Positions 2,040 through 41,411 of a DNA stretch of 45,038 nt are shown in pieces; positions within the stretch are counted from its first letter, which is position 1; every line of letters begins with the position of its first letter. The position numbers and the translations under genes are program-made. Source of the stretch: an uncultured Dehalococcoidaceae bacterium (GTDB lineage Bacteria; Chloroflexota; Dehalococcoidia; Dehalococcoidales; RBG-16-60-22); the NCBI GenBank assembly GCA_964589285.1, contig CAZPSP010000002.1, positions 1 through 45,038 on the forward strand, in the 5' to 3' direction. A model generated the notes under the pieces. It was not told the DNA's origin. It saw nothing but the letters and a program-made list of their open reading frames with translations, and searched no databases.

Positions 2040-3116
2040 ATGGAATTGACGCCGGAAGAACGCCAGAAGATCTACGAGGAAGAGAAGGCCCGCATCGAGG
2101 CCAGAGAACGGCTGGAGCGGGAACGTCAGGCGCCGGGTAAGGAATCCACGGTAGACCTTCAACCAAATGTCGCCGGTCTTCTTTGTTACGTGGGCTGGTG
2201 GATCAGCGGGCTCATATTCTTCATCATCGAGCAGAAGAACGAATGGATACGGTTCCACGCCGCTCAGGCCATTATCACCTTCGGGTCAATCGTGGTCGTT
2301 GGTAGTGTGATCAACCTTATCCCCTGGGTCGGACCACCACTGGCCGGTATTACGTGGTTCATCGGATTCGTGCTCTGGATAGTGCTGATGATCAAGGCGT
2401 ACAACGGCGAGAGGTTCAAGCTGGGCATCTTCGGGGACTTCGCCGAGAAATTGGTTGCGTCCTCCGGGACGCCTTCTTCTCCCACTTCCGATACCGAAAA
2501 ACCCGCAGGCCGCACCGACGAGGGTGTCCCCACTGCTCCCGCTTCCGTTGTTATCGAGGAACCGTACACGGTCGACAGCCCGGAGCACATCGAACAGCAC
2601 ATCGACCGTAAAGTGAAGGAATACTTCCGGAAAAAGCAGTCAGGCTATATCATCGGTTCAGCATTCGCCATCGCCTGGAGCATCATCCTGCTGGTGTTTC
2701 TGAACTTCTTCAATGAGTATTTTGCTTACTATAATCTGGAAACAATCAACGGGCGCGAGGTTTGGGTTCATAACAGTTTCTTCACCAGTGAGATAGGCCA
2801 GTGGCTCCCGATACTAACAACGACGCTGGTGCTGGCCATCGTCGGTCATATCATCATCATCGTACTCTACCGGCCGCTGTTGAGGAAGATCATCACCTTT
2901 GTGCTTGATATCTTCGGTCTGGCAACGGTGATCAGCCTGCTGGTCATTTATCCGTTCAACTTCGATGTCATCCCGAACGATGCAGCAGCCTCGATCATGG
3001 CCATCGCCGTCACGGTGGTCCTGATCGGCATATCAATCGGTATTGCCATCAGTCTCATCGTACGATTGATACAAGGGTTCATCGCCCTGACGAAGGGAAC
3101 GATCAACCAGGACTGA
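2040..3116 (+). CDS. membrane protein with N-terminal charged coiled coil, a DUF4870-like domain and a C-terminal multi-TM region
   Basis: 358-aa ORF with GGAGAG upstream of the ATG. It has EERQKIYEEEKARIEARERLERERQ, then LLCYVGWWISGLIFFIIEQKNEWIRFHAAQAI (DUF4870-like), an S/P/T-rich linker and further hydrophobic helices. It ends in TGA, so TGA works as a normal stop here. Confidence 0.7.
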   Translation: MELTPEERQKIYEEEKARIEARERLERERQAPGKESTVDLQPNVAGLLCYVGWWISGLIFFIIEQKNEWIRFHAAQAIITFGSIVVVGSVINLIPWVGPPLAGITWFIGFVLWIVLMIKAYNGERFKLGIFGDFAEKLVASSGTPSSPTSDTEKPAGRTDEGVPTAPASVVIEEPYTVDSPEHIEQHIDRKVKEYFRKKQSGYIIGSAFAIAWSIILLVFLNFFNEYFAYYNLETINGREVWVHNSFFTSEIGQWLPILTTTLVLAIVGHIIIIVLYRPLLRKIITFVLDIFGLATVISLLVIYPFNFDVIPNDAAASIMAIAVTVVLIGISIGIAISLIVRLIQGFIALTKGTINQD

Positions 3117-3123
3117 TGACCCT

Positions 3124-3903
3124 TTAGTCCGGCACCGGGCAGAGGGCGGCGGCGTTCTCCCCGGCAGCTTCGAGGACGCGAACAACGTCGGGCTGCGTCC
3201 AGCCGGCGGAAGTCAATTCCCGCACCAGGTTTTCGGCGGTAATATACCCCCCGGCGTAGCCGTTCAGCCGCGCAACCGCCGTTGAGGCAATGAAGTCCGC
3301 ATAGTTCGGGTACCGGGCGAGAAGTATGCTCCTGATATCCGGCTGTGTTGTCAGATAGTACTTCTGATGATAGTCTTCCGCCTGGTAAAAGGTACCGGCT
3401 TGGACCACCTGTGTCTTGACCCCTTTGCCGAGTCCGGCGGCAATAGCGTCTCGCGTTTCCTCGGCTGCGGCTTTCTGGGCTTCGTCATGATGGAAAACAA
3501 AAGCCTGGTACTGCCGGCTGGAGGAACGATACGTGGGACTATGGGACGCCCAGAAAACATCGAGCAGATCCTGGTAGGAGATGACCTCGGGATCGAAGGT
3601 TATCTCGATGGACTCGCTGTGATCGCCGAGAGAGTAGTAGGTGGGATTGACTTTTGTCCCACCGGTATAGCCGACACGCGTGCTGATAACACCTGGTAAA
3701 CTCCCGAACCGGGAGTCGGGTCCCCAGAATCAGCCGAGAGCGAAGGTGGCAAGTTCTGTTTTGGTACCAATATCATAGTTCATATCCTGGTTCACCCCTC
3801 CCCGGGAAACGGTATTATCCGCCCTGCAGCCGTTGATCGAGAGCGGGATGAAGGCAACTCCCAACAGCACGGCCATGAGAACAACGGACCATTTCCATTT
3901 CAT
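3124..3903 (-). CDS. msrA: peptide-methionine (S)-S-oxide reductase MsrA, exported; in-frame TGA (3732..3730) at the catalytic Cys position, a candidate selenocysteine
   Basis: One reverse frame runs from ATG 3903 to TAA 3126..3124 and is broken only by TGA. Translation: MKWKWSVVLMAVLLGVAFIPLSINGCRADNTVSRGGVNQDMNYDIGTKTELATFALG[TGA]FWGPDSRFGSLPGVISTRVGYTGGTKVNPTYYSLGDHSESIEITFDPEVISYQDLLDVFWASHSP...VVQAGTFYQAEDYHQKYYL... The TGA falls exactly on the C of the MsrA G-C-F-W-G motif. No ATG/GTG/TTG lies between the TGA and 3408, so a post-TGA restart would lose most of the domain. Confidence 0.8.
3700..3716 (-). promoter_or_regulatory. putative bacterial SECIS hairpin downstream of the msrA UGA
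   Basis: On the mRNA strand: UGA-uucuggggacccg-ACUCCCG-GUU-CGGGAGU. This is a perfect 7-bp stem (or 6 bp with a GGUUC loop) starting 13 nt after the UGA, with G/U in the apical loop as in known bSECIS elements. Confidence 0.5.
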
Positions 3904-3992
3904 TTCTCAACCCTTCTCAGCCGGAGAATTCCGGCATGCCTGCCATGAATATTTTTTTAATTCAAAAGCGCACGGCTTCAGCAACCGGAGCT

Positions 3993-4181
3993 TCAGGTGG
4001 GGCGGAAGCCGGTCCCGGAACCGGATTTGCTGCCGCTGCGTGAGGAAAACATAGAAAGATCGCGCCTGGGTCCGGGCGCGTCACATACCGGACAATGCAG
4101 TGTATCATCGTCATCATTAATGCCGCGGAATTTATCAAACTTCTCTCCGCACTGCTTGCAGGTATAGGCATAAATCGGCAT
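3993..4181 (-). CDS. FmdB-family zinc-ribbon protein (CxxC...CxxC, Ser/Gly-rich tail)
   Basis: MPIYAYTCKQCGEKFDKFRGINDDDDTLHCPVCDAPGPRRDLSMFSSRSGSKSGSGTGFRPT. The start was moved to ATG 4181, which is preceded by AAGAGG. The longer track ORF (to 4229) has no SD. Confidence 0.75.
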   Translation of the reverse strand: MPIYAYTCKQCGEKFDKFRGINDDDDTLHCPVCDAPGPRRDLSMFSSRSGSKSGSGTGFRPT

Positions 4182-4357
4182 GGTCAGTACCTCTTTGATT
4201 TGTACTTTCAACCTCATTTTACGTTCCATGGAACATCATTTGATGTGATAAATGTCTCGTTGACGTTGACAGTATCGTAATGTACAGAGTATCCTTTTTA
4301 AAGAGCGGCTCCCGTTTGCTTCCGTCTCATGAATCATCTTCAGGAGGGTACATTATT

Positions 4358-5746
4358 ATGGCTAATAACCCATCAAATCAAACATTTCTCGAACCAGCAC
4401 AGAATGTTGACATCATCCGCGAATGTGATGTCGTCGTCGTCGGCGGCGGCCCTGGCGGTCATGCTGCGGCAGTAGCGGCAGCCCGCAACGGCGCCGATAC
4501 AGTCCTCGTCGAACGATACGGCATTCTCGGCGGACAGGCCACCGGCGGTGTCGTGACCATAATTCCCAACCTGACCGGCCGGGACGGCAAACAGGAGATC
4601 ATCGGCCAGACCCAGGAATGGATCGACCGCTTGGATAAGCGCGAAGCCACCGCCTATGCGCCGAAAGAACTCTGGGGCAACACCGATAAAGCGCTCGTCA
4701 AGGAATGGTTCGACCGTTCTTTTTTCAACGTCCGTATCGACCGTATCATTTACAGCGCACTCTTCGATGCTGAAATTCTGAAATGCGCCCTCAACGATAT
4801 GGTCGAGGAAGCCGGCGTCAAGGTTTATCTTCACGCCTGGGGCGCCAAGACCATCATGGACGGACGGCGCGCCCGCGGCGTCATTATTGAAAGCAAGTCC
4901 GGGCGCCAGGCCATCATGGCCAAAGTAGTCATTGACGGCACGGCAGACGGCGACCTTTTCCCGTCGGCGGGGATCACCTATGATACGGACATCGACCCCA
5001 CCATCCGCATCGCCAATCTTTCCCTCTGCTACTGGATCAGCAATGTCGATATCAAGAAGAACATGGAATTCCGCAACAATAACCCGGACAAGTTCGGGGA
5101 ACTGATGCGGGAATTAATGCAGAAAGGCGGCCATCCCGGCTACATGCGGAGCTGCCTGAAGAACCAGGACGACATCGTCTGGGTACACCCGCGCTATGCC
5201 AATAAGAGCCAGATCGACATCGAAGAACTGACCCGTGTCGAATTCGAAGGCCGCAAGAGAATGCTGCTCAGCCATGATTTCTTCAAGGCCTACATGCCGG
5301 GCTTCGAGAAGAGTTTTATCTCCCTCTCCGCTCCGCAGATCGGCACCCGCAGCAGCCGGCGCGCCCACACAGATTATATTCTGAGGGAAGAAGACGCCCA
5401 GGCCGACCGCGTGTTCAGCGATACGATTGCTGTTTTCCCGGACGTTGATCGCGGTGAAGACTCGATGAACCATCCTTCCCTGCACGTCCCCTACCGCTGC
5501 CTTATTCCGAAGGGCGTGGAAAACATGCTCGTCTCCTGCCGCGCGTTCGGGTCCGACCAGGTCATCCAGAACTTCTTCAATCTCATCCCGCACTGCATCG
5601 CCTTCGGTGATGCCGCCGGCGCCGCAGCAGCCCTCGCGGTGAAGGAGACCGACGGCAAGGTACGCGATATCAACATGGACGAACTCAAGAGCCGGCTTGT
5701 CAAGGCCAACGTGCTGCTGCCGGAAGAGAGCAAGATCAACGCCTGA
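4358..5746 (+). CDS. FAD-dependent oxidoreductase (FAD_oxidored/PF12831-like)
   Basis: Dinucleotide-binding motif VVVVGGGPGGHAAAVAAARNGADTVLVERYGILGGQATGG. The start was set at ATG 4358, 8 nt after AGGAGGG; the track start at 4280 lacks an SD. Confidence 0.8.
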   Translation: MANNPSNQTFLEPAQNVDIIRECDVVVVGGGPGGHAAAVAAARNGADTVLVERYGILGGQATGGVVTIIPNLTGRDGKQEIIGQTQEWIDRLDKREATAYAPKELWGNTDKALVKEWFDRSFFNVRIDRIIYSALFDAEILKCALNDMVEEAGVKVYLHAWGAKTIMDGRRARGVIIESKSGRQAIMAKVVIDGTADGDLFPSAGITYDTDIDPTIRIANLSLCYWISNVDIKKNMEFRNNNPDKFGELMRELMQKGGHPGYMRSCLKNQDDIVWVHPRYANKSQIDIEELTRVEFEGRKRMLLSHDFFKAYMPGFEKSFISLSAPQIGTRSSRRAHTDYILREEDAQADRVFSDTIAVFPDVDRGEDSMNHPSLHVPYRCLIPKGVENMLVSCRAFGSDQVIQNFFNLIPHCIAFGDAAGAAAALAVKETDGKVRDINMDELKSRLVKANVLLPEESKINA

Positions 5747-5826: not shown

Positions 5827-7224
5827 ATGAACAAGGGATACCAAAGGACTGTCCGCGAACCGGCCCGTGATATCCGTGTCTGGAAAGAAGCCGACGTCGT
5901 TGTTATCGGCGGAGGACCGGGTGGGGTAGGCGCGGCAGTGGCCGCCGCCCGCAGCGGAGCGAAGACGGTGCTCGTCGAGCGGTACGGTCATCTCGGCGGG
6001 ATGGCGACCGGCGGCCTCGTTAACATTCTCCCCAACCTCAGCGACATGGCCGGGAAACAGCGTATTTACGGGATCACCCAGGAACTTATCGATCGCCTGG
6101 ACAAACGCGGCGGGACCTCATATCCTCCCAAAGAAAGATGGGGATCGACGGACGAGGACATCGTCAGCTATTACCTCGATGCCAACCTCGGCTGGTTCTA
6201 CGTGCGGGAAGACGCCGGTATCAGGAAAAAGCGCGTGCACTACACAGCGGTAGTCGACCCGGAAATCTTCAAAGACGAACTGAACACCATCGTCCTGGAG
6301 TCCGGAGCGGACCTCCTGCTGCATAGCTGGGGAACACAGGTCATGATGGAAGGCAATGCCGTGACCGGTGTATTCTTCGAGAGCAAATCCGGGAGGCAAG
6401 CCGTACTCGGGAAAGTCATTATAGACGCCACGGGGGACGGAGACATCTTCGTCGCCGCCGGGGCCGAGTATGACAATAATTGCGATAATTCCCGCCGGAC
6501 CGCCTGGCTGGCGCTCGTCTGGTGGATGGCCAACGTAGACCTGGATCGGTACGACCGGTTCAAGAAAGAACAGCCGGAAGAATTCAAAGGGCTGATGCAG
6601 GAACTGGTCAAACTGGGCGGCTACCCGGTGTTCTTCAAGGGCGTCCTGAAGAACCAGGAAGGCGTGGTCTGGTACCACTGCATGCAGCCGCAGCAGGAAC
6701 GTACCGACGCCATGGACGTCGAGCAGTTGACGCGCATCGATGTCCGTGCCCGGCAGCGTGCCGTTATTACCTATGAGTTTATGAAAAAGCACGTTCCCGG
6801 CTTTGAGAAATGCTTCATCATGCAGACAGCACCGCAACTCGGCACCCAGGGCGGGCGCAGGATCGTCGGAGAATACACCATCAGTGAAAAGGACCTCACG
6901 ACGGACGAGGTGTTCCCGGACACTATTGCCGTTTTGGCGAACAACGATTCAGGGGAAATATCGGCGAAGCATCCCGCTCTGTGTATACCCTACCGGACGC
7001 TGGTACCGAAGAGTGTGGACGGCCTGCTGGTGGCAGGTCGGCACTTCTCCTGTTCCGATACCATTAACGAATTCTTCAATATTATTCCACACTGCCTTTG
7101 CTACGGCCAGGCGGCCGGCACTGCGGCGGCAATGGCAGCCAAAGACGGAATACAACCGCGGCAGGTCGATTATAAAGAATTACAACGGAACCTGGTCAAA
7201 CAGGGCGTTAACATACCCGAGTAA
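5827..7224 (+). CDS. FAD-dependent oxidoreductase, tandem paralog of 4358..5746
   Basis: VVVIGGGPGGVGAAVAAARSGAKTVLVERYGHLGGMATGG. Blocks shared with the upstream gene include TQE(W/L)IDRLDKR, ESKSGRQA, DGDLF/DGDIF and NLIPHCI/NIIPHCL. GGAGG lies upstream of the ATG. Confidence 0.85.
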   Translation: MNKGYQRTVREPARDIRVWKEADVVVIGGGPGGVGAAVAAARSGAKTVLVERYGHLGGMATGGLVNILPNLSDMAGKQRIYGITQELIDRLDKRGGTSYPPKERWGSTDEDIVSYYLDANLGWFYVREDAGIRKKRVHYTAVVDPEIFKDELNTIVLESGADLLLHSWGTQVMMEGNAVTGVFFESKSGRQAVLGKVIIDATGDGDIFVAAGAEYDNNCDNSRRTAWLALVWWMANVDLDRYDRFKKEQPEEFKGLMQELVKLGGYPVFFKGVLKNQEGVVWYHCMQPQQERTDAMDVEQLTRIDVRARQRAVITYEFMKKHVPGFEKCFIMQTAPQLGTQGGRRIVGEYTISEKDLTTDEVFPDTIAVLANNDSGEISAKHPALCIPYRTLVPKSVDGLLVAGRHFSCSDTINEFFNIIPHCLCYGQAAGTAAAMAAKDGIQPRQVDYKELQRNLVKQGVNIPE

Positions 7225-7273: not shown

Positions 7274-7942
7274 ATGAACCAAGCCAAGGCGCGTATCGTC
7301 GTTTTCTCTTCACAGTCCCTTTTTTGCACAGGAATCACGCTTTCACTGATTAAGTATGACACCATCCGGGTAATGATGGCCTGTCCGTTTTCGTCCCAAA
7401 CCCTCGACAAGCTGGTCGGTCTTCTTCCCGATATTATTATCGTAGACATAGACGATGATGTGAACAGGGCGATCTCGGTGATCGAGGCCATCCAGGCACG
7501 GATCACCGGCCCCGGCATTATCGTCATGTCCAGCAATGAGACCGATGTATCCAAGATCACTCAATTTCCCGATATCATTCATCATCCGAAAAGCATTACC
7601 GCGGACGATCTCTACGTGGCAATCATGACAATCGTGGATCCGGAACTTCCCATCGAACCGTTGGAGAAAAGCCGGCCGGTGATGATTATTTCCGAAAAAG
7701 AAGGCATGCTCATCACTACCAACGACCGGGATTACAACGGAGGCCCCTTGACCGCCCGGGAACGTGAAGTCCTGAGCTACGTGGCGCTGGGGTATCTGAA
7801 CAAGCAGATCGCAGATACGCTTGGCATCAGCACGGAGACCATTAAAAACCATATCACGTCCTCTTTAAGGAAGCTGCACGCCAACAGCCGGACGGACGCG
7901 GTGGTACAGGCCATTAAACAGGGGCTTATCACCATAAGTTGA
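7274..7942 (+). CDS. LuxR/NarL-family transcription regulator with a degenerate (pseudo-)receiver domain
   Basis: C-terminal HTH LTAREREVLSYVALGYLNKQIADTLGISTETIKNHITSSLRKLHANSRTDAV. The N-terminal receiver-like fold has SS (IVVFSSQSL) where the acidic DD pair normally sits. Confidence 0.8.
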   Translation: MNQAKARIVVFSSQSLFCTGITLSLIKYDTIRVMMACPFSSQTLDKLVGLLPDIIIVDIDDDVNRAISVIEAIQARITGPGIIVMSSNETDVSKITQFPDIIHHPKSITADDLYVAIMTIVDPELPIEPLEKSRPVMIISEKEGMLITTNDRDYNGGPLTAREREVLSYVALGYLNKQIADTLGISTETIKNHITSSLRKLHANSRTDAVVQAIKQGLITIS

Positions 7943-8000: not shown

Positions 8001-8615
8001 TTACGCTGCGGCCGCCAGGGCTTTCTTGACGAACTCGTAGCCGAGATCGAACGCCTTGAAGTTGATCGCCGCGACCTTTTGATTGAAACGCGAAGCGATG
8101 GCGTCCTTGGCGTGCTGCTGATCGATTGGCATCAGCCCCGAACCGAACAACGCCCCGAGCATGACCACGTTGGCCGCCTGAAGAGAACCAGCTTCTTTCG
8201 CCAGACCGCTGGCATCGAGTGTGATGATGCGGTTCGTAACTTCCTTAAGCTTGGTCACTATCTGGTCGGGAGTGGGATAGCCGCTCTTGCCCAGGTACAC
8301 CGTGAATGGCATGACCGTGGTGGTGTTGAGAACAACGACGCTGTTTTTAGCCAGGTACTGGATATTCCGCAGCGCTTCAGAAGGTTCCACGGCGACAAGG
8401 ACGTCGCACTTGCCTTCCGGGGTCATCGGAGCGATGACGTCGCCGCCGAGCCGCAGGTTGCTGAACACGGAACCGCCGCGCTGGGCCATGCCGAGGACCT
8501 CGGATCCTTTCACGGCGACACCGCCGTTAACCGCCGCGTTACCGAGCAGTTCCGAGACCAGGACGACACCTTGACCGCCGGTACCGCAGATGATTATGTT
8601 AATCTCTCTCGTCAT
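8001..8615 (-). CDS. iorB: indolepyruvate/2-oxoacid:ferredoxin oxidoreductase subunit beta (gamma-domain type)
   Basis: MTREINIIICGTGGQGVVLVSELLG... The ATG lies 3 nt after the iorA stop and is preceded by AGGAGAG. Confidence 0.8.
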   Translation of the reverse strand: MTREINIIICGTGGQGVVLVSELLGNAAVNGGVAVKGSEVLGMAQRGGSVFSNLRLGGDVIAPMTPEGKCDVLVAVEPSEALRNIQYLAKNSVVVLNTTTVMPFTVYLGKSGYPTPDQIVTKLKEVTNRIITLDASGLAKEAGSLQAANVVMLGALFGSGLMPIDQQHAKDAIASRFNQKVAAINFKAFDLGYEFVKKALAAAA

Positions 8616-8618
8616 CGT

Positions 8619-11600
8619 TTACTCTCCTGCCTTGATCGCTTCGTGGGGACAAACCTGCGCGCACACGCCGCAGCCGGGGCACTGGGTTTCATCGACCGAC
8701 GCTTTACCGTCCTCGATAATGAGGGCCGGACAGCCGAGCAGATTGATGCATATCTTACAGTCGCAGCTCAGGCAGCGTTTCGCCTCAGCGATGGCCTGCT
8801 CCTTACTGAAGCCGAGATTGACTTCCTTGAAGTTTGTTTTCCGCTTGGCAACCGGAGCGGCCGGAGCGCTGGTCCGGGCTTCTTTGGCAAGCCCCCAGGT
8901 CTCGACGATGAGTTTCGACTCGAAGACGGCCTCACCTTCCCGTCCTACATCCATCGGTTCGCCTTTGAGGAAAAGATCAATCGATTTAGCGGCTTTGCGG
9001 CCCGCCGCCATGGCCTGGACAACGGTCGCGGCGCCGGTAACGGCGTCGCCGCCGGCAAACAGACCTTTAACCGGGGTAGCCAGTGTCACGGGGTCGGCGT
9101 TGATGCGGCCATCGGTGACAGCCTGGCCGTTGAGGAAATCGAGTTCCGGCTCCTCGCCTACGGCGGCGATGATGAGGTCGGCATCGATGGTGAATTCGGA
9201 ACCGGTCACGGGCACCGGCCGCCGCCGCCCGCTGGCATCAGGTTCGCCAAGTTGCATCTTGACACATTCGAGCCCGATGGCCTTACCGCTGGCGGTGATA
9301 ACCTTGTTCGGTCCAGAGAGAAGCGTCAGTTTCACGCCTTCTTCTTCCGCTTCGTGAATCTCCGTGGGAATAGCGGGCATCTCGTCGCGGGAACGCCGGT
9401 AGACTATCTGGACATCTTGAACGCCAAGCCTGACACAGGTACGGGCGCAGTCGATAGCCACATTGCCTCCACCGATGACGACGGCCCGGTTCGGAGATAC
9501 TATCCGTTCACCGGAATTGACCTTAAAGAGAAATTCGGTGCCGTCGATGACGCCGTGGGAGTTACTGTTGGGGATGCCGAGATCACGTCCTTTATGGGCG
9601 CCGACGGCCAGGAAAACGGCATCGTACTGTTTCTGGAGGTCGGCGAGTTGTACGTCCTTGCCTATCCGGGTATTAAGCTTGATATCCACACCAAGTCTGG
9701 CAACGAGGTCGGTCTCGCTCTGCAGGACTTCACGCGGCAAACGGAAGTCCGGGATACCCCAGGCCATCATACCACCGAGCGAGGAAAGGGCTTCATAGAT
9801 GGTCACTTTATAGCCGGCCTTACGGAGGTCCCAAGCAGCCATCATCCCCGCCGGACCGCCACCGACAACGGCGACTTTCTCAGTTTTCTCCGCCGGAATG
9901 TTCAAGTCATCGGTATATTTACCATATTCCACCGCGGCCCGTTTCAGGCCGTTGATGGAAATAGCTTCCTCAACGTTATTGCGTTCGCACTTGCCTTCGC
10001 AGGGAGCGGTACAAACACGGCCGATGATGGAGGGGAAGGGAAGGGTCTGCTTGATGAGCGCTAGGGCTTCATCGAACTTGCCTTCCTTGATGAATTTCAC
10101 ATAGCCGCGGATATCGATATGGAGCGGGCAGGTAGCCTGGCAGGCCGGGGGACTGCCGGCGACGCATTTCTCCGTGTCCACGACATAGGGGACGGTCTTG
10201 ACGCCTTCCTTCTTCTTTTGGCGAGCGTCCAGGATATTGCAGAGCCGGCGGGAAATGACCAGCGCCGGTCCATCAAACCGGATGGCGCGTTCCAGGCTGT
10301 CGATGAGCGAAGCCAGGTCGAAAGCATCGACGACCTCTACGAATTTAACACCTGCCGCCTGGGCGATATTTTCTATCTTTATGCCCAGGTCCACATTTTC
10401 CAGTGAGCCCGGGTGCGGCTGGAAGCCGGTCATGCCCGTGGTGGAATTGTCCATGACCACCATGGTCAGGTTAGCATTGTTATAGACCGCGTTTATCATG
10501 GGCGCGATACCGGAGTGGAAAAAGGTGGAATCGCCGAGGTGGCCGATGACCGGCCGGTCCAGAACGTGGGCGAACCCGTTCGCCATCCCGAAGCCGCCGC
10601 CCATACAGACCGCGGTATCATCGGTATTCAGCGGTTCGCCGGCGCCGAGGGCGTAGCAGCCGATGTCGCCGGTCTTGACGGCTTCTTTACCGGTCTCCTG
10701 CTGGTAACGCTTGGCCGCAATGTTGATAGCGTAGGCAGTAGCGCGATGAGGGCAGCCGGCGCACATGGTCGGCGGCCGCAGCGGCAGGAGCGATTCCGTT
10801 TCCTTACGGAGGGCATCGATCTCCTGGAAATCGACCGGAGGTTTAACACCGGTCAGCTTGTTGAGGGCCTCGGCCACGAGCCGTGTCGAAAGTTCCCCGG
10901 CCAGGGTCAGGAGGTCCTTACCGTGGACTTTGGTGGTAATATCGTTATCCTTGGCAACAACCTTGGTGGCCTCTTCGACGAAGGGTTCGAGTTCTTCGAC
11001 GACGAGGACCTTATCAACCGATTCGAGCATTTTCTTGATGAGTTTGACCGGCGCCGGGTACGGCGTACCGATCTTGAGGAACGAGACCTTGTCTTCCAGT
11101 CCCATCCACTTGATGGCTTCGATGGCATAGCCATTGGAAATGCCGTTGGCGATGACGCCGAGCTTAGCACCCGGTTTGAGGGTCAACTGGTTGTACGGCA
11201 AATCGTCGACGATGGCAGCGATCTTTTTCATCCGTTCGATGAGCAGCCGCCGCCGCGCGCGGAAATTGGCGGGTAAGCAGACCAGCCGCTGGTAGTCCTT
11301 GACGAATTCAGCTTTGCGGGCCGTCTTATCTATGTTCCCGAAGGTAACGTCTCCTCGCGCATGGCCGATACGGGTCACCGAACGAAGCATCCACATCTGC
11401 CCGTACTGCTCGGAAAGACGGAATGCATCCGCCATCATGTCCTTGGCTTCCTGGGCGGAAGCTGGTTCGAAAACAGGAATATAGGCCTGGCGGGCCAGCA
11501 AGCGATTGTCTTGTTCGTTCTGGGAGCTCCACTGACCGGGATCGTCAGCGGAAATAACGACGAGGCCGCCGAGCCCCATATAAGAGGCCGACATCAGGGG

Positions 11601-11903
11601 GTCGTGAGCGACGTTGACGCCGACATGCTTCATGATCGCCAGGGACCGCAGACCGGTGGTCGCGGCTGCCATGGCAATCTCGAGCGCCACTTTTTCATTA
11701 ATCGACCATTCCGCGTACATACCAGCGGCTTCAGCGTTCTCCACCAGGGTGGTCGTAATTTCGCTGGATGGAGTGCCGGGATACGAGGCTACCACCTGGA
11801 CGCCGGCTTCGATTGCCCCGCGGGCGATCGCTTCATTACCCAACATGAACAAACGGGCGCCGGGAGCATCGGACGTAATGGTCACTTGTGCTACCTTATT
11901 CAA
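8619..11903 (-). CDS. iorA: indolepyruvate:ferredoxin oxidoreductase alpha subunit fused with an internal GltD-like NAD(P)H-dependent FAD/Fe-S oxidoreductase module
   Basis: 1094 aa, TTG start after AGGAGGAG. Residues 1-570 form the IorA/TPP part (GNEAIARGAIEAGV, CAGCPHRATAY, GDSTFFHSG). Residues ~575-985 (nt ~8949..10181) are GltD-like (CPLHIDIRGYVKFIKEGKFDEALALIKQTLPFPSIIGRVCTAPCEGKC, KVAVVGGGPAGMMAAWDLRKAGYKVTIYE, VVIGGGNVAIDCA, LFAGGDAV). The C-terminus is the usual IorA ferredoxin domain (CLSCDCKIC...CPGCGVCAQVCP). Confidence 0.85.
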   Translation of the reverse strand: MNKVAQVTITSDAPGARLFMLGNEAIARGAIEAGVQVVASYPGTPSSEITTTLVENAEAAGMYAEWSINEKVALEIAMAAATTGLRSLAIMKHVGVNVAHDPLMSASYMGLGGLVVISADDPGQWSSQNEQDNRLLARQAYIPVFEPASAQEAKDMMADAFRLSEQYGQMWMLRSVTRIGHARGDVTFGNIDKTARKAEFVKDYQRLVCLPANFRARRRLLIERMKKIAAIVDDLPYNQLTLKPGAKLGVIANGISNGYAIEAIKWMGLEDKVSFLKIGTPYPAPVKLIKKMLESVDKVLVVEELEPFVEEATKVVAKDNDITTKVHGKDLLTLAGELSTRLVAEALNKLTGVKPPVDFQEIDALRKETESLLPLRPPTMCAGCPHRATAYAINIAAKRYQQETGKEAVKTGDIGCYALGAGEPLNTDDTAVCMGGGFGMANGFAHVLDRPVIGHLGDSTFFHSGIAPMINAVYNNANLTMVVMDNSTTGMTGFQPHPGSLENVDLGIKIENIAQAAGVKFVEVVDAFDLASLIDSLERAIRFDGPALVISRRLCNILDARQKKKEGVKTVPYVVDTEKCVAGSPPACQATCPLHIDIRGYVKFIKEGKFDEALALIKQTLPFPSIIGRVCTAPCEGKCERNNVEEAISINGLKRAAVEYGKYTDDLNIPAEKTEKVAVVGGGPAGMMAAWDLRKAGYKVTIYEALSSLGGMMAWGIPDFRLPREVLQSETDLVARLGVDIKLNTRIGKDVQLADLQKQYDAVFLAVGAHKGRDLGIPNSNSHGVIDGTEFLFKVNSGERIVSPNRAVVIGGGNVAIDCARTCVRLGVQDVQIVYRRSRDEMPAIPTEIHEAEEEGVKLTLLSGPNKVITASGKAIGLECVKMQLGEPDASGRRRPVPVTGSEFTIDADLIIAAVGEEPELDFLNGQAVTDGRINADPVTLATPVKGLFAGGDAVTGAATVVQAMAAGRKAAKSIDLFLKGEPMDVGREGEAVFESKLIVETWGLAKEARTSAPAAPVAKRKTNFKEVNLGFSKEQAIAEAKRCLSCDCKICINLLGCPALIIEDGKASVDETQCPGCGVCAQVCPHEAIKAGE

Positions 11904-13678: not shown

Positions 13679-16600
13679 CTAGACCAACTGTAACTGGAGC
13701 TGGAATTCCAGCGTGTTACCCGGTTTCAGTTCCCGTATATCTTCGCCGAGGGCTACTTCAATGGGGCCGATCTCCTGCGGACGGCTGGCCACTTTTAATG
13801 TCTCCCCGGTGATACGCACCTCCAGCCAGTGGCCCCGGTACCTTATCTCGAATGCAACTGACTTGAGTCCTTTGGGCAGGGCGGGATCGAAACGAAGAAT
13901 ATTGCCTCTCGTTTCGATGCCGGTATAAGCCCTCTGTATTATGTCTACTGTCCCCGCCATGGCGCCGAGGTGGATGCCTTCATGGGTGGTGCCTCCCTGT
14001 ATGTCCAGTACATCGCTTTCCAGTGCGTCCTGGAACAAATGCCAGGATACCTCGCGGCGTGACCTTGCCAACACCCAGGAATGCACTACCCGGCTCAATG
14101 TGGAGCCGTGAGAAGTCCTTTCCAGGTAATACTCTATGTTGCGCGGGATGGTTTCATGCTCGAAAGGATAACCCAAGCGATCAAACAGCTCTTTCATCTC
14201 GTCGGCGGAAAAGAGGTAGAACAGCATCAGGACATCAGCCTGCTTGGAGACCTTGTAACGGTTCGGGGTGTCTCCTTCGGCTTCGAGGATGCGGTCCAGC
14301 CGGTGGATATCTCCGTACTTCTTCCTGTAGCCGTTCCAGTCGAACTCAAGGAGGTCCCCATACCCTTCGAACTGGCTGATAATATCGCCGTCATGGAACG
14401 GTATGATCATTTTATGGCTTATCTCATTCCAGCGGTCCAGTTCCTCTTTACGCAGCACCAGATTTTCCCAGATGTGATTGCGCCGGTAGATGGAAATCAT
14501 CTCCAGCGACTCCAGGGCCCGGCACATGAGCCATACCGTCATGACGTTGGTATAAGCGTTATTATTGATGCCGGGCTCTTCTGCTCCGGGGTAGCGATCA
14601 TGGAACTCATCCGGGCCCATGACCTTGTGAATCTCATAGCGGTCAAGGGAATGGTTGTACCGGCACTTGCTGGCCCAGAACCGCGCCAGTTCTATAAGGA
14701 TTTCCGTGCCGTAGTATGTCATGAAATCAATGTCCCCTGAAACCTGATAATGCTGCCAGACATTATAGGCTACGGCCAGGTTAATATGCCGTTCAAGCTG
14801 GGAATTATCGGGTATCCAGCGGCCGGATTTGGGGTTCAGATGCAGGGTCTGGGCTTCCTCGCGGCCGTTGCTGCCGCTCTGCCATGGGAACATCGCGCCA
14901 CTGTATCCTGCCGTGAGGGCTGCCCGCCTGGCGGCCGGCAACCGGCGGTAGCGGTAGCTGAGGAGCGACTTGGTAATGTCCGGTATCCGTAGATTAAGCA
15001 AGTGGAAGATGAACAATTCGTCCCACATGATGAGTCCGCGATAGGCCTCGCCATGAAGGCCGCGCGGCGGGATGCCGGCATCGAGGGAGATGGTATTAGG
15101 CGATACGGTCTGGAGCAAATGGAAAATGTGGAGATTAAGGATCTGCGCCATACGCACACTTTCAGTATCGACAGTGATATGCCAGATCTCCCAGAGATGC
15201 CCCCACCCGGTGATATGGCTTGCCAGGAGACCGGCAAAATCGGCTGCGAAACGGACTTCTTCCCTGGCGGCGAGCGAGCTCTCAGTAATACCGCGATCGC
15301 GTGAGTTGTACAGAGCGGCGATTTTCTCGACTCGCACCAGTTGCCCTTTTTTTATGGGGACCGTGAACTCCTGTGCAATGTAGCCTTCCTCCCGCAGAAC
15401 GCGGCGTTCCGGACGGTACCGCTCTTCACCGATAAAGACCCTGGTGCGGACAGCCTCGGCGATATGGATATGAGACTGGTTGGTCTCCGCCAGCAGCCAG
15501 ATGATATTGCTGCCATCTGAGCCGTTATCCACCTGGAGGAGATGATGGTTGTTTAACTGGCGGTACCGCTTGACGAGCGTATTATTCACGTTCCCGTCTA
15601 TGGCCGAACGGACCTGTATGCTTCCTTCCCAGTCTTCCGCAACCAGGGTCGTCTCCAAAGCGGCAACGTGCGCCATCTGGATATGAACGAAACGGCGTTC
15701 CGTCAAACGCGTATGGCGCCCGGCGACGTCGGCAAATCGCACCGACCGCGTCAGGACACCGCGCCCCGTATCGAGTTCCTGCCGGTAGTCCAGGATGTTC
15801 ACAGAAGCAAGATCTAACCAGTCCCCGTCTTCGATCCTGAACGTAAGGGGCAGCCAGTTGGGAACATTGACCAGGCTTTCATTCTCGATAGTTTGACCGG
15901 CTACCTCACTGGTCAGCCGGTTATAGATGCCGGCGATATAGGTACCGGGATAATGGTATTCACCGGCGGATGATTCCGGGGCAGCCGCACGTGTTACGAA
16001 GTAGCCGTTACCGGTAGCGCAGAGGACCTCCCGTAATTGTTCAGAAGCGGGATCATATTCTTCATACGAGAATGTGTGCGTATCTCTGGAAACGTCTTTC
16101 TCCGCATTTTTCGCCATTTCCTCCAGGAATAGGACCGCCTGCCGCACGTCCTGCAGGATGTAATCAGCCTCTGTGGGACGGTGCTCCGGGCCGATCAGAA
16201 CGCCGATACCGTAGCCTTCAATTGCCTTAAAAGCGTCTTCATCAGTGATATCATCGCCGATGAACAGGGGCACGAGCCGTGAACCGTCCACGTGGACCGT
16301 GCGGGCAAGGTGCAGCAGGGTTCTCCCTTTATCCCAGTCAAGGTCGGGACGAAATTCAGCTTTTTTGCCATCCCGAACCAATCTCAGTTCGGTTTCCGCC
16401 GCGGACAATTCGGAGAGGTATTGTTCGACTGCGGACACAGCGGAGGCATCAGCCTCATCATATTTGACCGTTATGGAATACGGCAGGCGCCGGATATGGA
16501 CGCCTGGCAGCGTGCCCAACCGGTCTTCCAGGTTCTTTTCCGTGTTGTTGATGGCGGGCAGAAAGTGTCTTCCCAGGCTGACCGCAAAGGGTTCTCCGGG

Positions 16601-17653
16601 GTCTCCGACCGCGAACCCATGGCTGCTGGCATACACAATTGTCTCCAGCCCGAGTCGCTCCCGCACGGAACTGACAGCTTCTTTACTCATGATGACAACC
16701 GGCCATCTCTCCGAGACCGTTCTCAGGGCGGTACGCAACCGCTGGAACAACTGGCTCTCTTGACCTTCCAAAAGGGGCTTAAGCGTGCCGTTATAGTCCA
16801 GGAAGAGAGCCGGAATTCCCCGTGATAGCTGCTGTAGTATCTTCTGGCTTTGCTGCAGGGCGGAAGGCAGGGAAGCCGCGTCATGTGTGTGTTCCTGAGG
16901 CAGTATTTTCAGCTCGGAAATGTCTCTGATGACAATGTCCGCGCCAAGTTTTTTCATTTCTTCCGTGTTATTGGCGCGGTCAACACCGATTACGATGGCG
17001 AAATCACCTGCGATACCGGCTTGCACTCCCGCGAGAGCATCCTCTACCATGGCGGAGCGTTGAGGAAATACGTTCAATTCACGCGCTGCTTGTAGAAATA
17101 TGTCCGGCTCCGGTTTACCTTTAAGACCAAGAGAGACAGATGCACGACCTTCAACGATGGCATCGAACAGGTCCGTGACACCAGCGGCATTCAGCACCTC
17201 CATGGCATTCTTGCTGGATGATATTACCGCTACTCGCTTGCCGCGGGATTTGAGTTCCTTGATAAAGTCAACGGTTGATTTGTAAGCGTCTGCGCCGTTT
17301 TCTTTCAGGTACTGTTGAAAATATCCGTTTTTCCTGTTGCCCAGGCCGCATACCGTTTCCGCCTCCGGAGGGTCGTCAGGGCTGCCGAAGGGAATTTTTA
17401 TATTCCGGGACTCCAAAAAGCTTTGAGCGCCTTCATACCTCGGTTTGCCGTCAACATAGAGACTGTAGTCGTTGACAATGTCGAATGGTACGTAATTTTC
17501 TTTATGCTCCCGGGCGCGTTCCTTGAGATAGTCATCGAACATTCGTTTCCAGGCCGCGGCATGCGCTCCTGCAGAGCGCGTGACCACACCATCCATATCG
17601 AGAATAACGGCGTCGATATTATCCAAATCCAGGACCGGTTGTTCATGCTGCAT
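13679..17653 (-). CDS. OtsB1-like tri-domain protein: beta-phosphoglucomutase-type HAD, a trehalose-6-phosphate-phosphatase-like HAD and a GH65 glycoside phosphorylase
   Basis: 1324 aa. The N-terminus has AVILDMDGVV (DxDG HAD motif I) and GKPEPDIF. The middle domain has ALFLDYNGTLKPL and GDDITDEDAF. The C-terminal ~800 aa are GH65-like (WHITVDTESVR, HGEAYRGLIMWDELF, THEGIHLGAMAGT). The architecture and length match mycobacterial OtsB1 (Rv2006, 1327 aa) as I recall it. Confidence 0.85.
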   Translation of the reverse strand: MQHEQPVLDLDNIDAVILDMDGVVTRSAGAHAAAWKRMFDDYLKERAREHKENYVPFDIVNDYSLYVDGKPRYEGAQSFLESRNIKIPFGSPDDPPEAETVCGLGNRKNGYFQQYLKENGADAYKSTVDFIKELKSRGKRVAVISSSKNAMEVLNAAGVTDLFDAIVEGRASVSLGLKGKPEPDIFLQAARELNVFPQRSAMVEDALAGVQAGIAGDFAIVIGVDRANNTEEMKKLGADIVIRDISELKILPQEHTHDAASLPSALQQSQKILQQLSRGIPALFLDYNGTLKPLLEGQESQLFQRLRTALRTVSERWPVVIMSKEAVSSVRERLGLETIVYASSHGFAVGDPGEPFAVSLGRHFLPAINNTEKNLEDRLGTLPGVHIRRLPYSITVKYDEADASAVSAVEQYLSELSAAETELRLVRDGKKAEFRPDLDWDKGRTLLHLARTVHVDGSRLVPLFIGDDITDEDAFKAIEGYGIGVLIGPEHRPTEADYILQDVRQAVLFLEEMAKNAEKDVSRDTHTFSYEEYDPASEQLREVLCATGNGYFVTRAAAPESSAGEYHYPGTYIAGIYNRLTSEVAGQTIENESLVNVPNWLPLTFRIEDGDWLDLASVNILDYRQELDTGRGVLTRSVRFADVAGRHTRLTERRFVHIQMAHVAALETTLVAEDWEGSIQVRSAIDGNVNNTLVKRYRQLNNHHLLQVDNGSDGSNIIWLLAETNQSHIHIAEAVRTRVFIGEERYRPERRVLREEGYIAQEFTVPIKKGQLVRVEKIAALYNSRDRGITESSLAAREEVRFAADFAGLLASHITGWGHLWEIWHITVDTESVRMAQILNLHIFHLLQTVSPNTISLDAGIPPRGLHGEAYRGLIMWDELFIFHLLNLRIPDITKSLLSYRYRRLPAARRAALTAGYSGAMFPWQSGSNGREEAQTLHLNPKSGRWIPDNSQLERHINLAVAYNVWQHYQVSGDIDFMTYYGTEILIELARFWASKCRYNHSLDRYEIHKVMGPDEFHDRYPGAEEPGINNNAYTNVMTVWLMCRALESLEMISIYRRNHIWENLVLRKEELDRWNEISHKMIIPFHDGDIISQFEGYGDLLEFDWNGYRKKYGDIHRLDRILEAEGDTPNRYKVSKQADVLMLFYLFSADEMKELFDRLGYPFEHETIPRNIEYYLERTSHGSTLSRVVHSWVLARSRREVSWHLFQDALESDVLDIQGGTTHEGIHLGAMAGTVDIIQRAYTGIETRGNILRFDPALPKGLKSVAFEIRYRGHWLEVRITGETLKVASRPQEIGPIEVALGEDIRELKPGNTLEFQLQLQLV

Positions 17654-21160: not shown

Positions 21161-21826
21161 ATGGCATCCATATCTATCATCCTTGTTGACGATCACAGGA
21201 TCATGCGACAGGGACTGAAAGCTCTTCTGGAAGAGTCAGCCGATTTCCAGGTCATCGGGGAAGCTGATAACGGTCAGGACGGCGTGCATCTGGTAAAAGA
21301 ACTCAAGCCGGACGTCCTCGTGCTGGACATGGCGTTGCCGGACATCGACGGCGTGACCGTGGTCAGGGAAGCGGTGCGGTTGTCGCCTCTGACGGCGGTC
21401 ATCATCCTCTCCATGCATAATGTTGAAGGCTATGTAAGAAAAGCCTTGCAGGCCGGCGCCCTGGCCTATGTCTTGAAAGACTCGACATCTTCCGAACTCA
21501 TCGCGGCCATCCGCGAAGCCCTGGCCGGCCGGCGCTACCTCAGCCAGTCAGTAGCGCAGCGTGCTTTTGATTTCTTCGTAGAAGGAGGGATCCCTGCCCC
21601 GCTTGATCCCAACCTGGCCCTAAGTAAACGAGAACGGGAAGTGCTGCCCTATCTCGCTGGCGGCCAGACCGCCCGGCAGATCGGGGAGAGTCTGGGCATC
21701 AGTCCACGCACCATCGAGTTTCACCGGCGGAACATCATGCACAAACTGGGACTGAAGGGGCATAAGGAACTCGTCCGGTTCTGCATACGCACCGGCATTT
21801 TCCCGGAAGACCGTGCCGCCATCTAG
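21161..21826 (+). CDS. NarL/LuxR-family response regulator (canonical receiver plus HTH)
   Basis: IILVDDHRIMRQGL, DVLVLDMALPDIDG, ILSMH and AYVLKD, then LSKREREVLPYLAGGQTARQIGESLGISPRTIEFHRRNIMHKLG. Confidence 0.9.
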   Translation: MASISIILVDDHRIMRQGLKALLEESADFQVIGEADNGQDGVHLVKELKPDVLVLDMALPDIDGVTVVREAVRLSPLTAVIILSMHNVEGYVRKALQAGALAYVLKDSTSSELIAAIREALAGRRYLSQSVAQRAFDFFVEGGIPAPLDPNLALSKREREVLPYLAGGQTARQIGESLGISPRTIEFHRRNIMHKLGLKGHKELVRFCIRTGIFPEDRAAI

Positions 21827-23253: not shown

Positions 23254-23439
23254 ATAAGGTCGGAGGCTCTGCATGGAACTTCAGAAGAAAACGGAGCGTA
23301 AGAGCCGGGCGCTGGCCCGGGTGCTCAAACAGGGAGCGAACAAGAACGTCGTTAAACGCTGGGAACGAAAAGGCCATTGATCCCCGCCAGACAGGGTAAA
23401 TATGACACTGCATCCGGCGTAAGTCCAAAAAGGATTGCA

Positions 23440-24192
23440 ATGTCAGAAAGAAGCTCGGAACTTATGACGGAAAAGAAACAACCAACGGGTAAATCGGTGT
23501 TGATACTGCACCGCCACCCTCTCATTTGCGAAGGTCTGGCGCGGGTCATTCGGGAAGCCGGGTTTATCGTCATTCAGGAGATCATCGATGGCAAAGACCA
23601 TACTATCCCCGTGCTTGCCGATAAACCGGATATCATCATCATAGATTGTGATATTCCGGACTCGGAGAACACCATTTTACACGGCTTGAAGGAATGCGTA
23701 CCGGACGCTATTCTCATAATACTGACAACGCCGCAGCCCGGTCATAGTTTCATACCCGCTATCAACGCCGGGGCGCAGGGATACCTTTCAACGAACCTGT
23801 CCGCGGATACCTTCATCAGTCTGCTGCACTTGCTGGCCGGCGGCAACGTTGTCATAGCCCGGGAGAAACTGTATGATGACAGCCAGACACTCTCCGGAAA
23901 TCCCGCTGCTACATTCGATGATCTCAGTAACCGGGAGAAAGAAGTCCTTTGCCTGGTCGGGAAAGGGGCCACCAATCGGGAGATCGCGGGAGAGCTCTTC
24001 ATGTCCGAACACACCGTGAAAGTCCACCTGCGGGCCATATTGAACAAGCTGAACCTGAGGAACCGTCAACAGGCTGCCGCCTACGCGACACAGATGGGCC
24101 TGGTGGGGGATGTCACACGCCTGCACCCGGCATCGGGCAGTACTATCCCGATGCAACTCGGAAAGACTACTGGGGTGCATGCCCGTAATTGA
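23440..24192 (+). CDS. LuxR-family regulator with a pseudo-receiver domain
   Basis: Start set at ATG 23440, after AAAGGA. VLILHRHPL sits where DD is expected and GYLST where the conserved Lys is expected. HTH: LSNREKEVLCLVGKGATNREIAGELFMSEHTVKVHLRAILNKLNLRNRQQAA. Confidence 0.8.
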   Translation: MSERSSELMTEKKQPTGKSVLILHRHPLICEGLARVIREAGFIVIQEIIDGKDHTIPVLADKPDIIIIDCDIPDSENTILHGLKECVPDAILIILTTPQPGHSFIPAINAGAQGYLSTNLSADTFISLLHLLAGGNVVIAREKLYDDSQTLSGNPAATFDDLSNREKEVLCLVGKGATNREIAGELFMSEHTVKVHLRAILNKLNLRNRQQAAAYATQMGLVGDVTRLHPASGSTIPMQLGKTTGVHARN

Positions 24193-27748: not shown

Positions 27749-27997
27749 ATGGCTGAAAATAATAGCGGGTCAGGGTTCGGAACCGGTCTCATGGTAGGAC
27801 TACTGGCGGGAGCGGCGGTCGCCCTGCTTTATGCACCTCAGTCCGGCCGTGAAACTCGAGCAATGCTGAAACAAAGGGCGGAAGAGACCAGAAATAAAGC
27901 AGAAGAGATAATTGAAGAAGCTCGCGAAAGAGCCAGGAAAATCGTCCAGGACGCCAAGAATGAAGCCCAGGAAATGAAGAGCGAGGTCAGTTCCTGA
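27749..27997 (+). CDS. YtxH-domain protein
   Basis: GFGTGLMVGLLAGAAVALLYAPQSGRETRAMLKQRAEE followed by a charged helix. Confidence 0.75.
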   Translation: MAENNSGSGFGTGLMVGLLAGAAVALLYAPQSGRETRAMLKQRAEETRNKAEEIIEEARERARKIVQDAKNEAQEMKSEVSS

Positions 27998-28043
27998 CTC
28001 TATGTACGAAAGATTACGGACGTGGAGGAAGGAGCCTCAGGGG

Positions 28044-28268
28044 ATGAACAGTCAGATGGCCCGTGGACTGGTAGCAGGGTTTTTAATCGGGGCGGCCATC
28101 GGGATAACGGTAGGGATGCTTTGGGCGCCGCATTCCGGACGAGTGACCCGCGGAATGATAGCCGAAAAAGCTTCGCAGGTAAGGCACGATGCGTCACGCA
28201 CTATTGATGATGCTCGTCATCGGGGACGACGAATGGTACGGGATGTAAGAGAACGCATCGGCAAGTAA
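28044..28268 (+). CDS. YtxH-domain protein (second copy)
   Basis: GFLIGAAIGITVGMLWAPHSGRVTRGMIAEKASQ. Start set at ATG 28044 after GGAGGAAGGAG. Confidence 0.7.
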   Translation: MNSQMARGLVAGFLIGAAIGITVGMLWAPHSGRVTRGMIAEKASQVRHDASRTIDDARHRGRRMVRDVRERIGK

Positions 28269-28487: not shown

Positions 28488-29660
28488 GTGAATTTAAGAA
28501 AGGCCGGCCCGTTCCGGCTGAGGGAAAATATTGTTCCCGGTATGACCCCAGAAAATACTCCTTACCCTCATAATAAGCCCGGGGAGGCCAACATTTCTTT
28601 GAACTCGCGTCTAGATTTTTCTCAAAGTCCATTTTCACCCGAAGCCAAGGCCGTCGAGAACACATGGAGATGGGTGGTAGACAATATCCAGGACATGGTA
28701 TATATCCTGGACCGCAAAGGACGTTTCATCTTGTGCAATAGGGCGGTAAGTGACGTGCTGGGACTATCGGAGCATGATATTATAGGAAAAAACATACGGG
28801 AACTGGGTTTCCCCCGTGATACCGTCAAGCAATGGAACAATCTAATACGCAGAACCCTGGAGGGAGAGAAGCTGACATCCGAGATCGGCCTTCCGATGCC
28901 GGAGGGCGGGCTCCGCATGTATTCAGTTACACTTCACCCGATACGGAATGATGACGGACAGATAGTAGGCTGCAACGGCGTAGGTCATGATATTACCGAG
29001 ATGCGGCAAACAAGGGAGGCCTTGCGCCAGGTATCGTTGCGTATTCTGGAGACGCGGGAAAAAGAACGACGGACCATCGGAGAAGTCCTCCATGATGAAC
29101 TGGGCGCCAGCCTCACCATGCTTAATCTTTCTCTCCATCATCTAAAAAAAACGATAAGCCCGGAGGCCGAGCCCGCGGTCAAGGAATTCGAGGACGCTGT
29201 GCGAGATCTCATCGAACAAGTTCGCACCCTTTCTCACTCGCTGCGTCCGAGCGTCCTCGGCCAGGTGCCTTTGCCGGAAGCCCTTCAACTCCACTTCCAG
29301 AGGTTTGAGGCAAGTACCGGGATGGCGGTCATGTTCAACTGTGAAGGGATAGAGAGCAATCTCCCTTCTGAAATCGAGATAGTAATATACCGAATAGTAC
29401 AAGAAGCCCTCACCAACGCCGCCAAATATTCTGGCGCTGAAACTGTGAGAGTGGTAATATGTAATGAAAGCAATGCTTATGCCGTCTGCATCGAAGACAA
29501 CGGTAAAGGGTTCGACCCCCGAAAGATGGATTCAGAAGGAAGCGGAATTATCGGCATGCAGGATTTGGCTGCCTTGATAGGCGGAGAACTATCCGTGGAT
29601 TCTTCTCCCGGATACGGTACGAGGATAACCTGCCGGATACCTCTCCCGGAACTATCCTGA
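28488..29660 (+). CDS. cytoplasmic sensor histidine kinase (PAS, HisKA_3, HATPase_c)
   Basis: PAS-like MVYILDRKGRFILCNRAVSDVLG. H-box EVLHDELGASLTML, N-box EALTNAAKYSGA, DNGKGF and GIIGMQDLAALIGGEL. No TM segment. GTG start uncertain. Confidence 0.85.
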   Translation: MNLRKAGPFRLRENIVPGMTPENTPYPHNKPGEANISLNSRLDFSQSPFSPEAKAVENTWRWVVDNIQDMVYILDRKGRFILCNRAVSDVLGLSEHDIIGKNIRELGFPRDTVKQWNNLIRRTLEGEKLTSEIGLPMPEGGLRMYSVTLHPIRNDDGQIVGCNGVGHDITEMRQTREALRQVSLRILETREKERRTIGEVLHDELGASLTMLNLSLHHLKKTISPEAEPAVKEFEDAVRDLIEQVRTLSHSLRPSVLGQVPLPEALQLHFQRFEASTGMAVMFNCEGIESNLPSEIEIVIYRIVQEALTNAAKYSGAETVRVVICNESNAYAVCIEDNGKGFDPRKMDSEGSGIIGMQDLAALIGGELSVDSSPGYGTRITCRIPLPELS

Positions 29661-41370: not shown

Positions 41371-41411
41371 ACCCGGATCAGATATAGCTGCATCCGGGTT
41401 GTGGAGTGAGG

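Follow-up and report, generated by a model that had tools for sequence, protein, structure and literature searches.

Among the selenoprotein families of bacteria that have been verified by experiment is peptide-methionine (S)-S-oxide reductase (MsrA), recognized by the motif GUFWG/H, in which U is selenocysteine (Sec) (reviews of bacterial selenoproteins). The only characterised bacterial Sec-containing MsrA is the cytoplasmic enzyme of Clostridium (Alkaliphilus) oremlandii OhILAs (CoMsrA; structures 4LWJ, 4LWK, 4LWL, 4LWM, 4U66, 7C13 and 4W8C), which is recycled by glutaredoxin and not by thioredoxin. CoMsrA has 209 residues, contains no Cys and uses Sec as its sole redox residue (1-Cys type). 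Mutation of its Sec to Cys lowers the activity 20-fold, and its helical domain is essential for activity and for the geometry of the active site. Members of the same family with Sec at the same position, from Syntrophobacter fumaroxidans and the delta symbionts of Olavius algarvensis, are listed in surveys of bacterial selenoproteomes. In this work we analyzed a stretch of 45,038 nucleotides (nt) from contig CAZPSP010000002.1 (assembly GCA_964589285.1; hereafter the window), in which an msrA frame containing one internal TGA is located on the minus strand at 3903..3124. Judged from sequence comparisons, this locus is very probably (a probability of about 0.93) a single functional MsrA gene with a catalytic Sec at the UGA, which would be decoded by Sec-tRNA(Sec) in translation. 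The gene is a member of a known and structurally solved selenoprotein family and does not represent a new kind of enzyme.

The msrA frame extends from ATG 3903 to TAA 3126..3124 and comprises 259 codons with a single internal stop, the TGA at 3732..3730, located in the context TELATFALG-*-FWGPDSRFGSLPGVISTRVGYTGG. If this codon is read through as Sec58, the complete coding sequence occupies 3124..3903, and the active-site motif FALG-U-FWGPD (residues 54-63) aligns with GCFWG of CoMsrA and of 10 homologous loci carrying Cys. In a mechanical list of open reading frames (ORFs), each of which opens at the first ATG, GTG or TTG after a stop, the frame is cut into ORFs 3730..3903 (57 aa) and 3124..3408 (94 aa, GTG start). 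Since this rule picks the first start after a stop, the msrA frame contains no start codon from the TGA to 3408. Synthesis of a 57-residue product together with a separate downstream product was ruled out, because the second product would have no start codon. A preliminary description of this DNA had drawn attention to the 94-aa C-terminal fragment, to a frame open back to ATG 3903 apart from one TGA, to the location of this TGA at the catalytic Cys of G-C-F-W-G, to the lack of any ATG, GTG or TTG in the stretch from the TGA to 3408, and to a perfect hairpin at 3716..3700 starting 13 nt past the UGA. Our translation, the ORF list with its rule and the alignment to MsrA agree with these statements, and the coordinates of the hairpin with its 7 bp stem are correct.

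With Cys substituted for the UGA, the read-through translation passed the comparison with the MsrA family model PF01625 (PMSR), matching it over residues 52-186 (3346..3750, minus strand) with E = 5e-40 and 137.6 bits at a cutoff of 23.7. It also matched the NCBIfam model TIGR00401 (msrA) with 123.4 bits at a cutoff of 108.1. The part of the protein after the UGA by itself still gave 121.9 bits. By domain match, the predicted activity of the product is that of MsrA. Its best match among solved structures, found by phmmer in the PDB, was the selenoprotein CoMsrA (E = 5e-59). The alignment is ungapped, covers residues 44-236 of the query and spans the catalytic domain and most of the unusual C-terminal helical domain of that enzyme. 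The two proteins have in common G-U-F-W-G with its Sec nucleophile and, judging by this alignment, probably also the order of the domains, the catalytic one being followed by the helical one. The latter would correspond to residues ~187-236 of the window protein (3196..3345, minus strand), where the ungapped alignment to 4U66/4LWJ passes through chain residues 145-193 and reaches residue 193/194 of 209-217; identity in this domain, counted from the alignment, is only ~26%. In contrast to CoMsrA, which has 15 residues before the Sec and no signal segment, the window protein has 57. It also possesses a hydrophobic N-terminal segment, the lipobox-like Cys26 and Cys255, all of them absent from CoMsrA, and thus does not fit the description of a 1-Cys cytoplasmic enzyme. 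The predicted product starts with a segment resembling a signal or lipoprotein sequence, continues with the MsrA catalytic domain and a putative CoMsrA-type helical domain, and ends in a short tail with one Cys.

A protein search revealed thousands of MsrA relatives. Several close relatives start just past the active site (P0001, with 74% identity, P0002, P0015, P0023 and P0039), and several others contain Trp at the position of the nucleophile, giving 'GWFWG' (P0004, P0008, P0010, P0014, P0017, P0031 and P0032). The DNA of loci L001, L003 and L004 contains an in-frame TGA at the catalytic column in each case, followed by the same hairpin. In L004 this TGA is located at 590-592, and 'GWFWG' arises from the gene caller translating TGA as W. 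It should be mentioned that one protein entry, P0026, has Arg at this column ('GRFWG').

To these loci we added 160 more by scanning contigs of one genome per species as well as JGI metagenomes. In total 165 loci were fetched, and the active-site motif was recognisable in 159 and not recognisable in six of them. In these independent genomes and metagenomes, the catalytic column (3730..3732 in the window gene) is TGA in 149 of the 159 loci and TGT or TGC in 10. The alternation of Cys and Sec among orthologs, which the preliminary description had suggested looking for, was therefore found. On the other hand, its remark on the rarity of Sec-containing forms of MsrA does not apply to this subfamily, where Sec is the common state, and the family is both catalogued and structurally solved. 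The TGA forms were found in metagenome-assembled genomes (MAGs) and in isolates that are labelled Dehalococcoidales, Anaerolineae, Desulfobacterota, Nitrospirota, Firmicutes, Syntrophomonadaceae, Desulforamulus, Actinomycetota, Planctomycetota, Acidobacteriota and others. Among these lineages are Sec users already catalogued in the literature as possessing Sec-MsrA, for example Syntrophobacter and the Olavius delta symbionts. Like the window gene, the loci from Syntrophobacter sp. (L049) and from the Olavius Delta 4 symbiont (L071) contain both the TGA and the hairpin; the window gene is only 42-57% identical to the Syntrophobacter and Olavius loci and comes from a different lineage, probably Chloroflexota. 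The nearest MsrA locus in the genome collection was found in a Dehalococcoidales MAG (52% identity). A separate observation concerns locus L043 (Anaerolineales MAG contig CAZMOT010000174.1, ~3260-4560), in which a single frame joins MsrB to MsrA; the TGA is located in the MsrA part, and reading through it gives a product of 431 aa.

In bacteria, a stem-loop directly 3' of the UGA binds the protein SelB (bacterial selenoprotein review). The candidate selenocysteine insertion sequence (SECIS) of the window gene, GACUCCCG-GUU-CGGGAGUU (3699..3717, minus strand), includes the perfect hairpin ACUCCCG-GUU-CGGGAGU at 3716..3700, and an added G-U pair extends its stem to 3717..3699. The hairpin starts 13 nt from the UGA and its GUU loop 20 nt from it. 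In SelB-SECIS work on E. coli fdhF and on Moorella, the G and U of the loop are contacts of SelB. Judging by its geometry, with the loop 20 nt from the UGA and opened by G and then U, the hairpin is of the bacterial SECIS type. It resembles the fdhF-type element in its location immediately 3' to the UGA within the coding region, in the conserved G-U of the apical loop and in the distance of 20 nt between UGA and loop. It differs from this element by a short stem of 6-8 bp, a loop of 3 nt (5 nt if it is closed by A-C), no evident bulged U and no match in Rfam, and the binding of SelB is a prediction.

We then compared this region in homologous genes, using a gap-free alignment of 48 nt from the UGA onward in 73 distinct Sec forms. 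RNAalifold recovered a 6 bp core around the G-U-U loop, with columns 18-23 paired to columns 27-32. Covariation was counted on the 8 bp version of the stem, where three pairs were changed on both sides (CG/AU/UA, UA/GC and GC/AU). The number of doubly changed cells was 53 compared with 18.4 +/- 3.2 in shuffles; the covariation score of 0.256, compared with 0.109, was reached by none of the 500 shuffles, and all slid controls were lower. The shuffle control provides no probability, because the counts come from related sequences; the slid control and the test of synonymous codons are free of this weakness. In locus L003 an A-to-G change in the hairpin keeps a U-G pair.

Since the stem falls within the conserved peptide P-D-S/A-R/Q-F-G-S, its nucleotide conservation might merely mirror that of the protein. 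Codon choice was compared between 147 distinct Sec forms and 10 Cys forms of the same peptide. In the stem of the Sec forms, Ser was encoded by TCC in 90 of 91 cases, Ala by GCC in 53 of 56, Arg by CGG in 95 of 100 and Gly by GGG in 138 of 147, while the loop was GUU in 145 of 147. In the Cys forms the codons for this peptide are scattered, and the synonymous constraint is thus confined to the Sec forms. The minimum free energy of the local hairpin was -10.1 kcal/mol in the Sec forms versus -4.6 kcal/mol in the Cys forms (Mann-Whitney p = 3e-4). As a separate observation, locus L119 (metagenome contig Ga0209345_10191399) is a TGC form, encoding Cys, which has the complete hairpin codons GAC TCC CGG TTC GGG AGT and looks like a recent Sec-to-Cys replacement.

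Several observations weigh against the interpretation of this locus as a functional gene for an exported, two-domain Sec-MsrA. As concerns the hairpin, the single-sequence fold of 71 nt had z = -0.59 relative to shuffles and is uninformative. Hairpins with a perfect 7 bp stem and a 3-nt loop occur six times in the window compared with 2.8 expected from shuffles, and when loops of 3-8 nt are allowed, 22 such hairpins occur compared with 16 expected. A scan of the whole window matched no Rfam family and provided no curated SECIS model. The hairpin by itself is not statistically exceptional, and the weight therefore comes from the comparative evidence. Thus, of the initial proposal that the hairpin is a SECIS, the position, conservation and covariation speak in favour, while the fold taken alone is unremarkable. 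As concerns the protein, its match to PF20939 (MsrA_helical) stays below the threshold (14-16 bits over 14 residues; cutoff 23.7). A precomputed PF20939 match is recorded for many relatives, and because of the sub-threshold score the assignment of the window protein to the two-domain subtype depends on these relatives and on its alignment with CoMsrA. The N-terminal I-N-G-C, with Asn at -2, fails the strict lipobox pattern [LVI][ASTVI][GAS]C (PROSITE PS51257-type), and export is argued from heuristics.

As concerns the Sec machinery, no selA, selB, selD or tRNA-Sec was found within the 45-kb window, and ARAGORN detected no tRNA genes of any kind in it. A systematic scan for in-frame TGA codons gave no second read-through candidate in the window. 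The 40 candidates obtained mechanically were dismissed as lying inside genes in other frames or as giving low-complexity translations, and the sole intergenic one (27995) is the stop codon of a small ORF that is followed by a separate ORF. With no other candidate, the window offers no independent sign of Sec use by the organism. We infer that the host carries selA, selB, selC and selD, and the confidence given above is held at its level mainly because the sel genes were searched within the 45-kb window alone. It should also be mentioned that a gene for a GlpC/HdrD-like Fe-S protein with 4Fe-4S dicluster and CCG domains (42976..44562, plus strand) is a continuous ORF that lacks any in-frame TGA; Sec-containing members of this family occur in Deltaproteobacteria.

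Since no Sec machinery was found in the window, decoding of the UGA without selenium was also considered. In this case a reassigned or suppressor tRNA would insert Trp or Gly, or the Sec machinery would insert Cys under a shortage of selenium. We consider such decoding very improbable. The W at the catalytic column of several database entries (P0004, P0008, P0010 and others), which might seem to favour it, is a gene-caller translation of TGA, and the DNA of L004 does contain TGA. In the window, 11 of the 31 other likely genes, including 2040..3116, terminate at TGA, and several of these genes have full-length Pfam matches running up to this stop. Therefore, in agreement with the preliminary description, UGA is not generally reassigned, and apart from the msrA site it is a normal stop in the window. 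Furthermore, MsrA with Trp or Gly in place of the nucleophile would be inactive, which is at odds with the purifying selection acting on the gene, and the conserved hairpin with G-U in its loop is the feature expected for binding of SelB.

Evidence for this selection came from the comparison with the ortholog L001, which is 74% identical, has the same length and can be aligned with the window gene codon for codon. In the 57 codons before the UGA, the two genes differ at codon positions 1, 2 and 3 in 17, 16 and 41 cases, with 20 synonymous codon changes; in the 201 codons after it, the corresponding numbers are 32, 26 and 98, with 73 synonymous changes. Since third positions dominate the divergence on both sides, both halves have been kept as coding sequence in the same frame, and this excludes a recent nonsense mutation. 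The possibility that the gene is a dead or dying pseudogene, in which TGC or TGT of the catalytic Cys has mutated to TGA, thus has an almost negligible probability, although one base change is enough to produce TGA from either codon and gene callers give fragments only. Besides this pattern of divergence, the frame is intact with no further stops or frameshifts, the same TGA is present in the 149 homologous loci from many phyla, and a covarying hairpin accompanies it. Decayed copies, which would indicate a pseudogene, were not seen among the close relatives. Moreover, L001, L002 and L003 are syntenic with the window, showing in the same order a MalQ-like gene, a gene for a DUF4870 membrane protein convergent on msrA, msrA itself and then FAD_oxidored genes, and each syntenic msrA contains the TGA. 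Finally, a sequencing or assembly error concealing a true TGC or TGT, for which a single-base difference would suffice, is barely credible, as TGA occupies the same column in independent ENA, NCBI and JGI assemblies of syntenic orthologs and the downstream codons TCC, CGG and GGG are those of the Sec forms, in contrast to the Cys forms.

Read as a Sec-MsrA gene, the locus shows two features at the ends of its product that CoMsrA lacks. The first 26 residues, MKWKWSVVLMAVLLGVAFIPLSINGC (3826..3903, minus strand), consist of a basic MKWK, an 18-residue hydrophobic core and I-N-G-C ending in Cys26, and their best 12-residue Kyte-Doolittle mean is 3.03. The ortholog L001 contains Cys at the matching position within a canonical lipobox, V-A-G-C. 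The N-terminus could be assessed in 138 Sec-form homologs, of which 104 (~75%) begin with a strongly hydrophobic segment and 53 contain a PROSITE-type lipobox. Hence we infer from its sequence that the window MsrA may be exported or lipid-anchored. At the opposite end, the tail (3127..3195, minus strand) terminates in AAGENAAALCPVPD, the last residues being AALCPVPD, with Cys255 encoded at 3141..3139. Cys is found within the last 14 residues in 40 of the 138 Sec-form homologs, mostly as C-P-x. A link between the C-terminal Cys and export was tested and rejected (Fisher p = 0.67). By analogy with other MsrAs, whose resolving Cys is C-terminal, Cys255 is a candidate resolving cysteine that may react with the selenenic acid intermediate and form a selenenylsulfide with Sec58, and recycling in the clade of the window gene may proceed through this bond.

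Extracytoplasmic Msr enzymes of the Cys type are known from Streptococcus pneumoniae (MsrAB2 with Etrx1/2), Neisseria (PilB) and Haemophilus (MsrAB). They are likewise reported to have MsrA placed behind a signal or lipoprotein sequence, but differ in using Cys, in being fused to MsrB (and in Neisseria to thioredoxin too) and in having dedicated thioredoxin-like or CcdA partners encoded nearby. Clustering of the neighbourhoods of ~80 Sec-MsrA loci revealed no conserved redox partner (CcdA/DsbD or thioredoxin-like); MsrB was adjacent in seven of these loci and a molybdopterin oxidoreductase in four. No description of exported Sec-MsrAs was found in the literature searched, the coverage of which was incomplete, and the prevalence of export signals on Sec-MsrAs has apparently gone unremarked. 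It can tentatively be suggested, at somewhat less than even odds, that the window gene is part of a large class of extracytoplasmic Sec-MsrAs with signal-peptide and lipoprotein forms.

The neighbourhood of msrA is conserved in its closest relatives L001, L002, L003 and L005. In the window it is formed by a MalQ-like gene that runs off the left end (1..~1860, minus strand), the gene for a DUF4870-domain membrane protein of 358 aa, which converges on msrA (2040..3116, plus strand), and two paralogous genes for PF12831 FAD-dependent oxidoreductases (4280..5746 and 5827..7224, both on the plus strand). Further along the window, the gene for GlmS (39598..41370) has its best named relatives, at ~59% identity, in Chloroflexota/Dehalococcoidales MAGs, and another relative is 96% identical. 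As a hint at the level of the phylum, GlmS thus points to an uncultured Chloroflexota lineage as the probable source of the window.

Two long fusions were observed in the rest of the window. The gene at 8619..11903 (minus strand, 1094 aa) joins the alpha subunit of indolepyruvate:ferredoxin oxidoreductase to a GltD-like NAD(P)-binding flavoprotein of ~500 residues, an unusual architecture, and is followed by the IorB gene (8001..8615, minus strand). The other, at 13679..17653 (minus strand, 1324 aa), combines a HAD hydrolase with a trehalose-phosphatase domain and with a GH65 glycoside phosphorylase that is complete in its N, central and C domains. Two small ORFs in tandem (27749..27997 and 28002..28268, plus strand; 82 and 88 aa) each encode a single N-terminal hydrophobic helix and then a charged helical region; by eye, the pair at 27749..28268 resembles YtxH-type stress proteins. 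Regulatory genes are also present, namely those for LuxR-type regulators (7274..7942, 21161..21826, 23377..24192 and 41406..42122) and for HisKA_3 kinases (28488..29660 and 30384..31580). LuxR/GerE-type response regulators and HisKA_3 PAS histidine kinases are thus unusually dense for 45 kb.

Sec-MsrA proves to be common in anaerobes, but its genes are regularly split in two by annotation pipelines. The window gene and most of its relatives in public databases are stored as N-terminally truncated fragments or with a spurious Trp. Because of these truncated and miscalled entries, the MsrA repertoire and the selenoproteome of uncultured anaerobes are under-counted. The signature consisting of a UGA, a distance of 20 nt and a GUU loop on a CCC/GGG stem is simple enough for automatic rescue of such genes. 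The apparent export signals found on most Sec-MsrAs of anaerobes raise the question of the reductant outside the cell: if MsrAs of strict anaerobes indeed work outside the membrane, they would need an extracytoplasmic reductant. Neither the lesson for annotation nor the observation on export signals overturns current understanding. As for the source organism, the msrA gene marks it as a probable selenium user.

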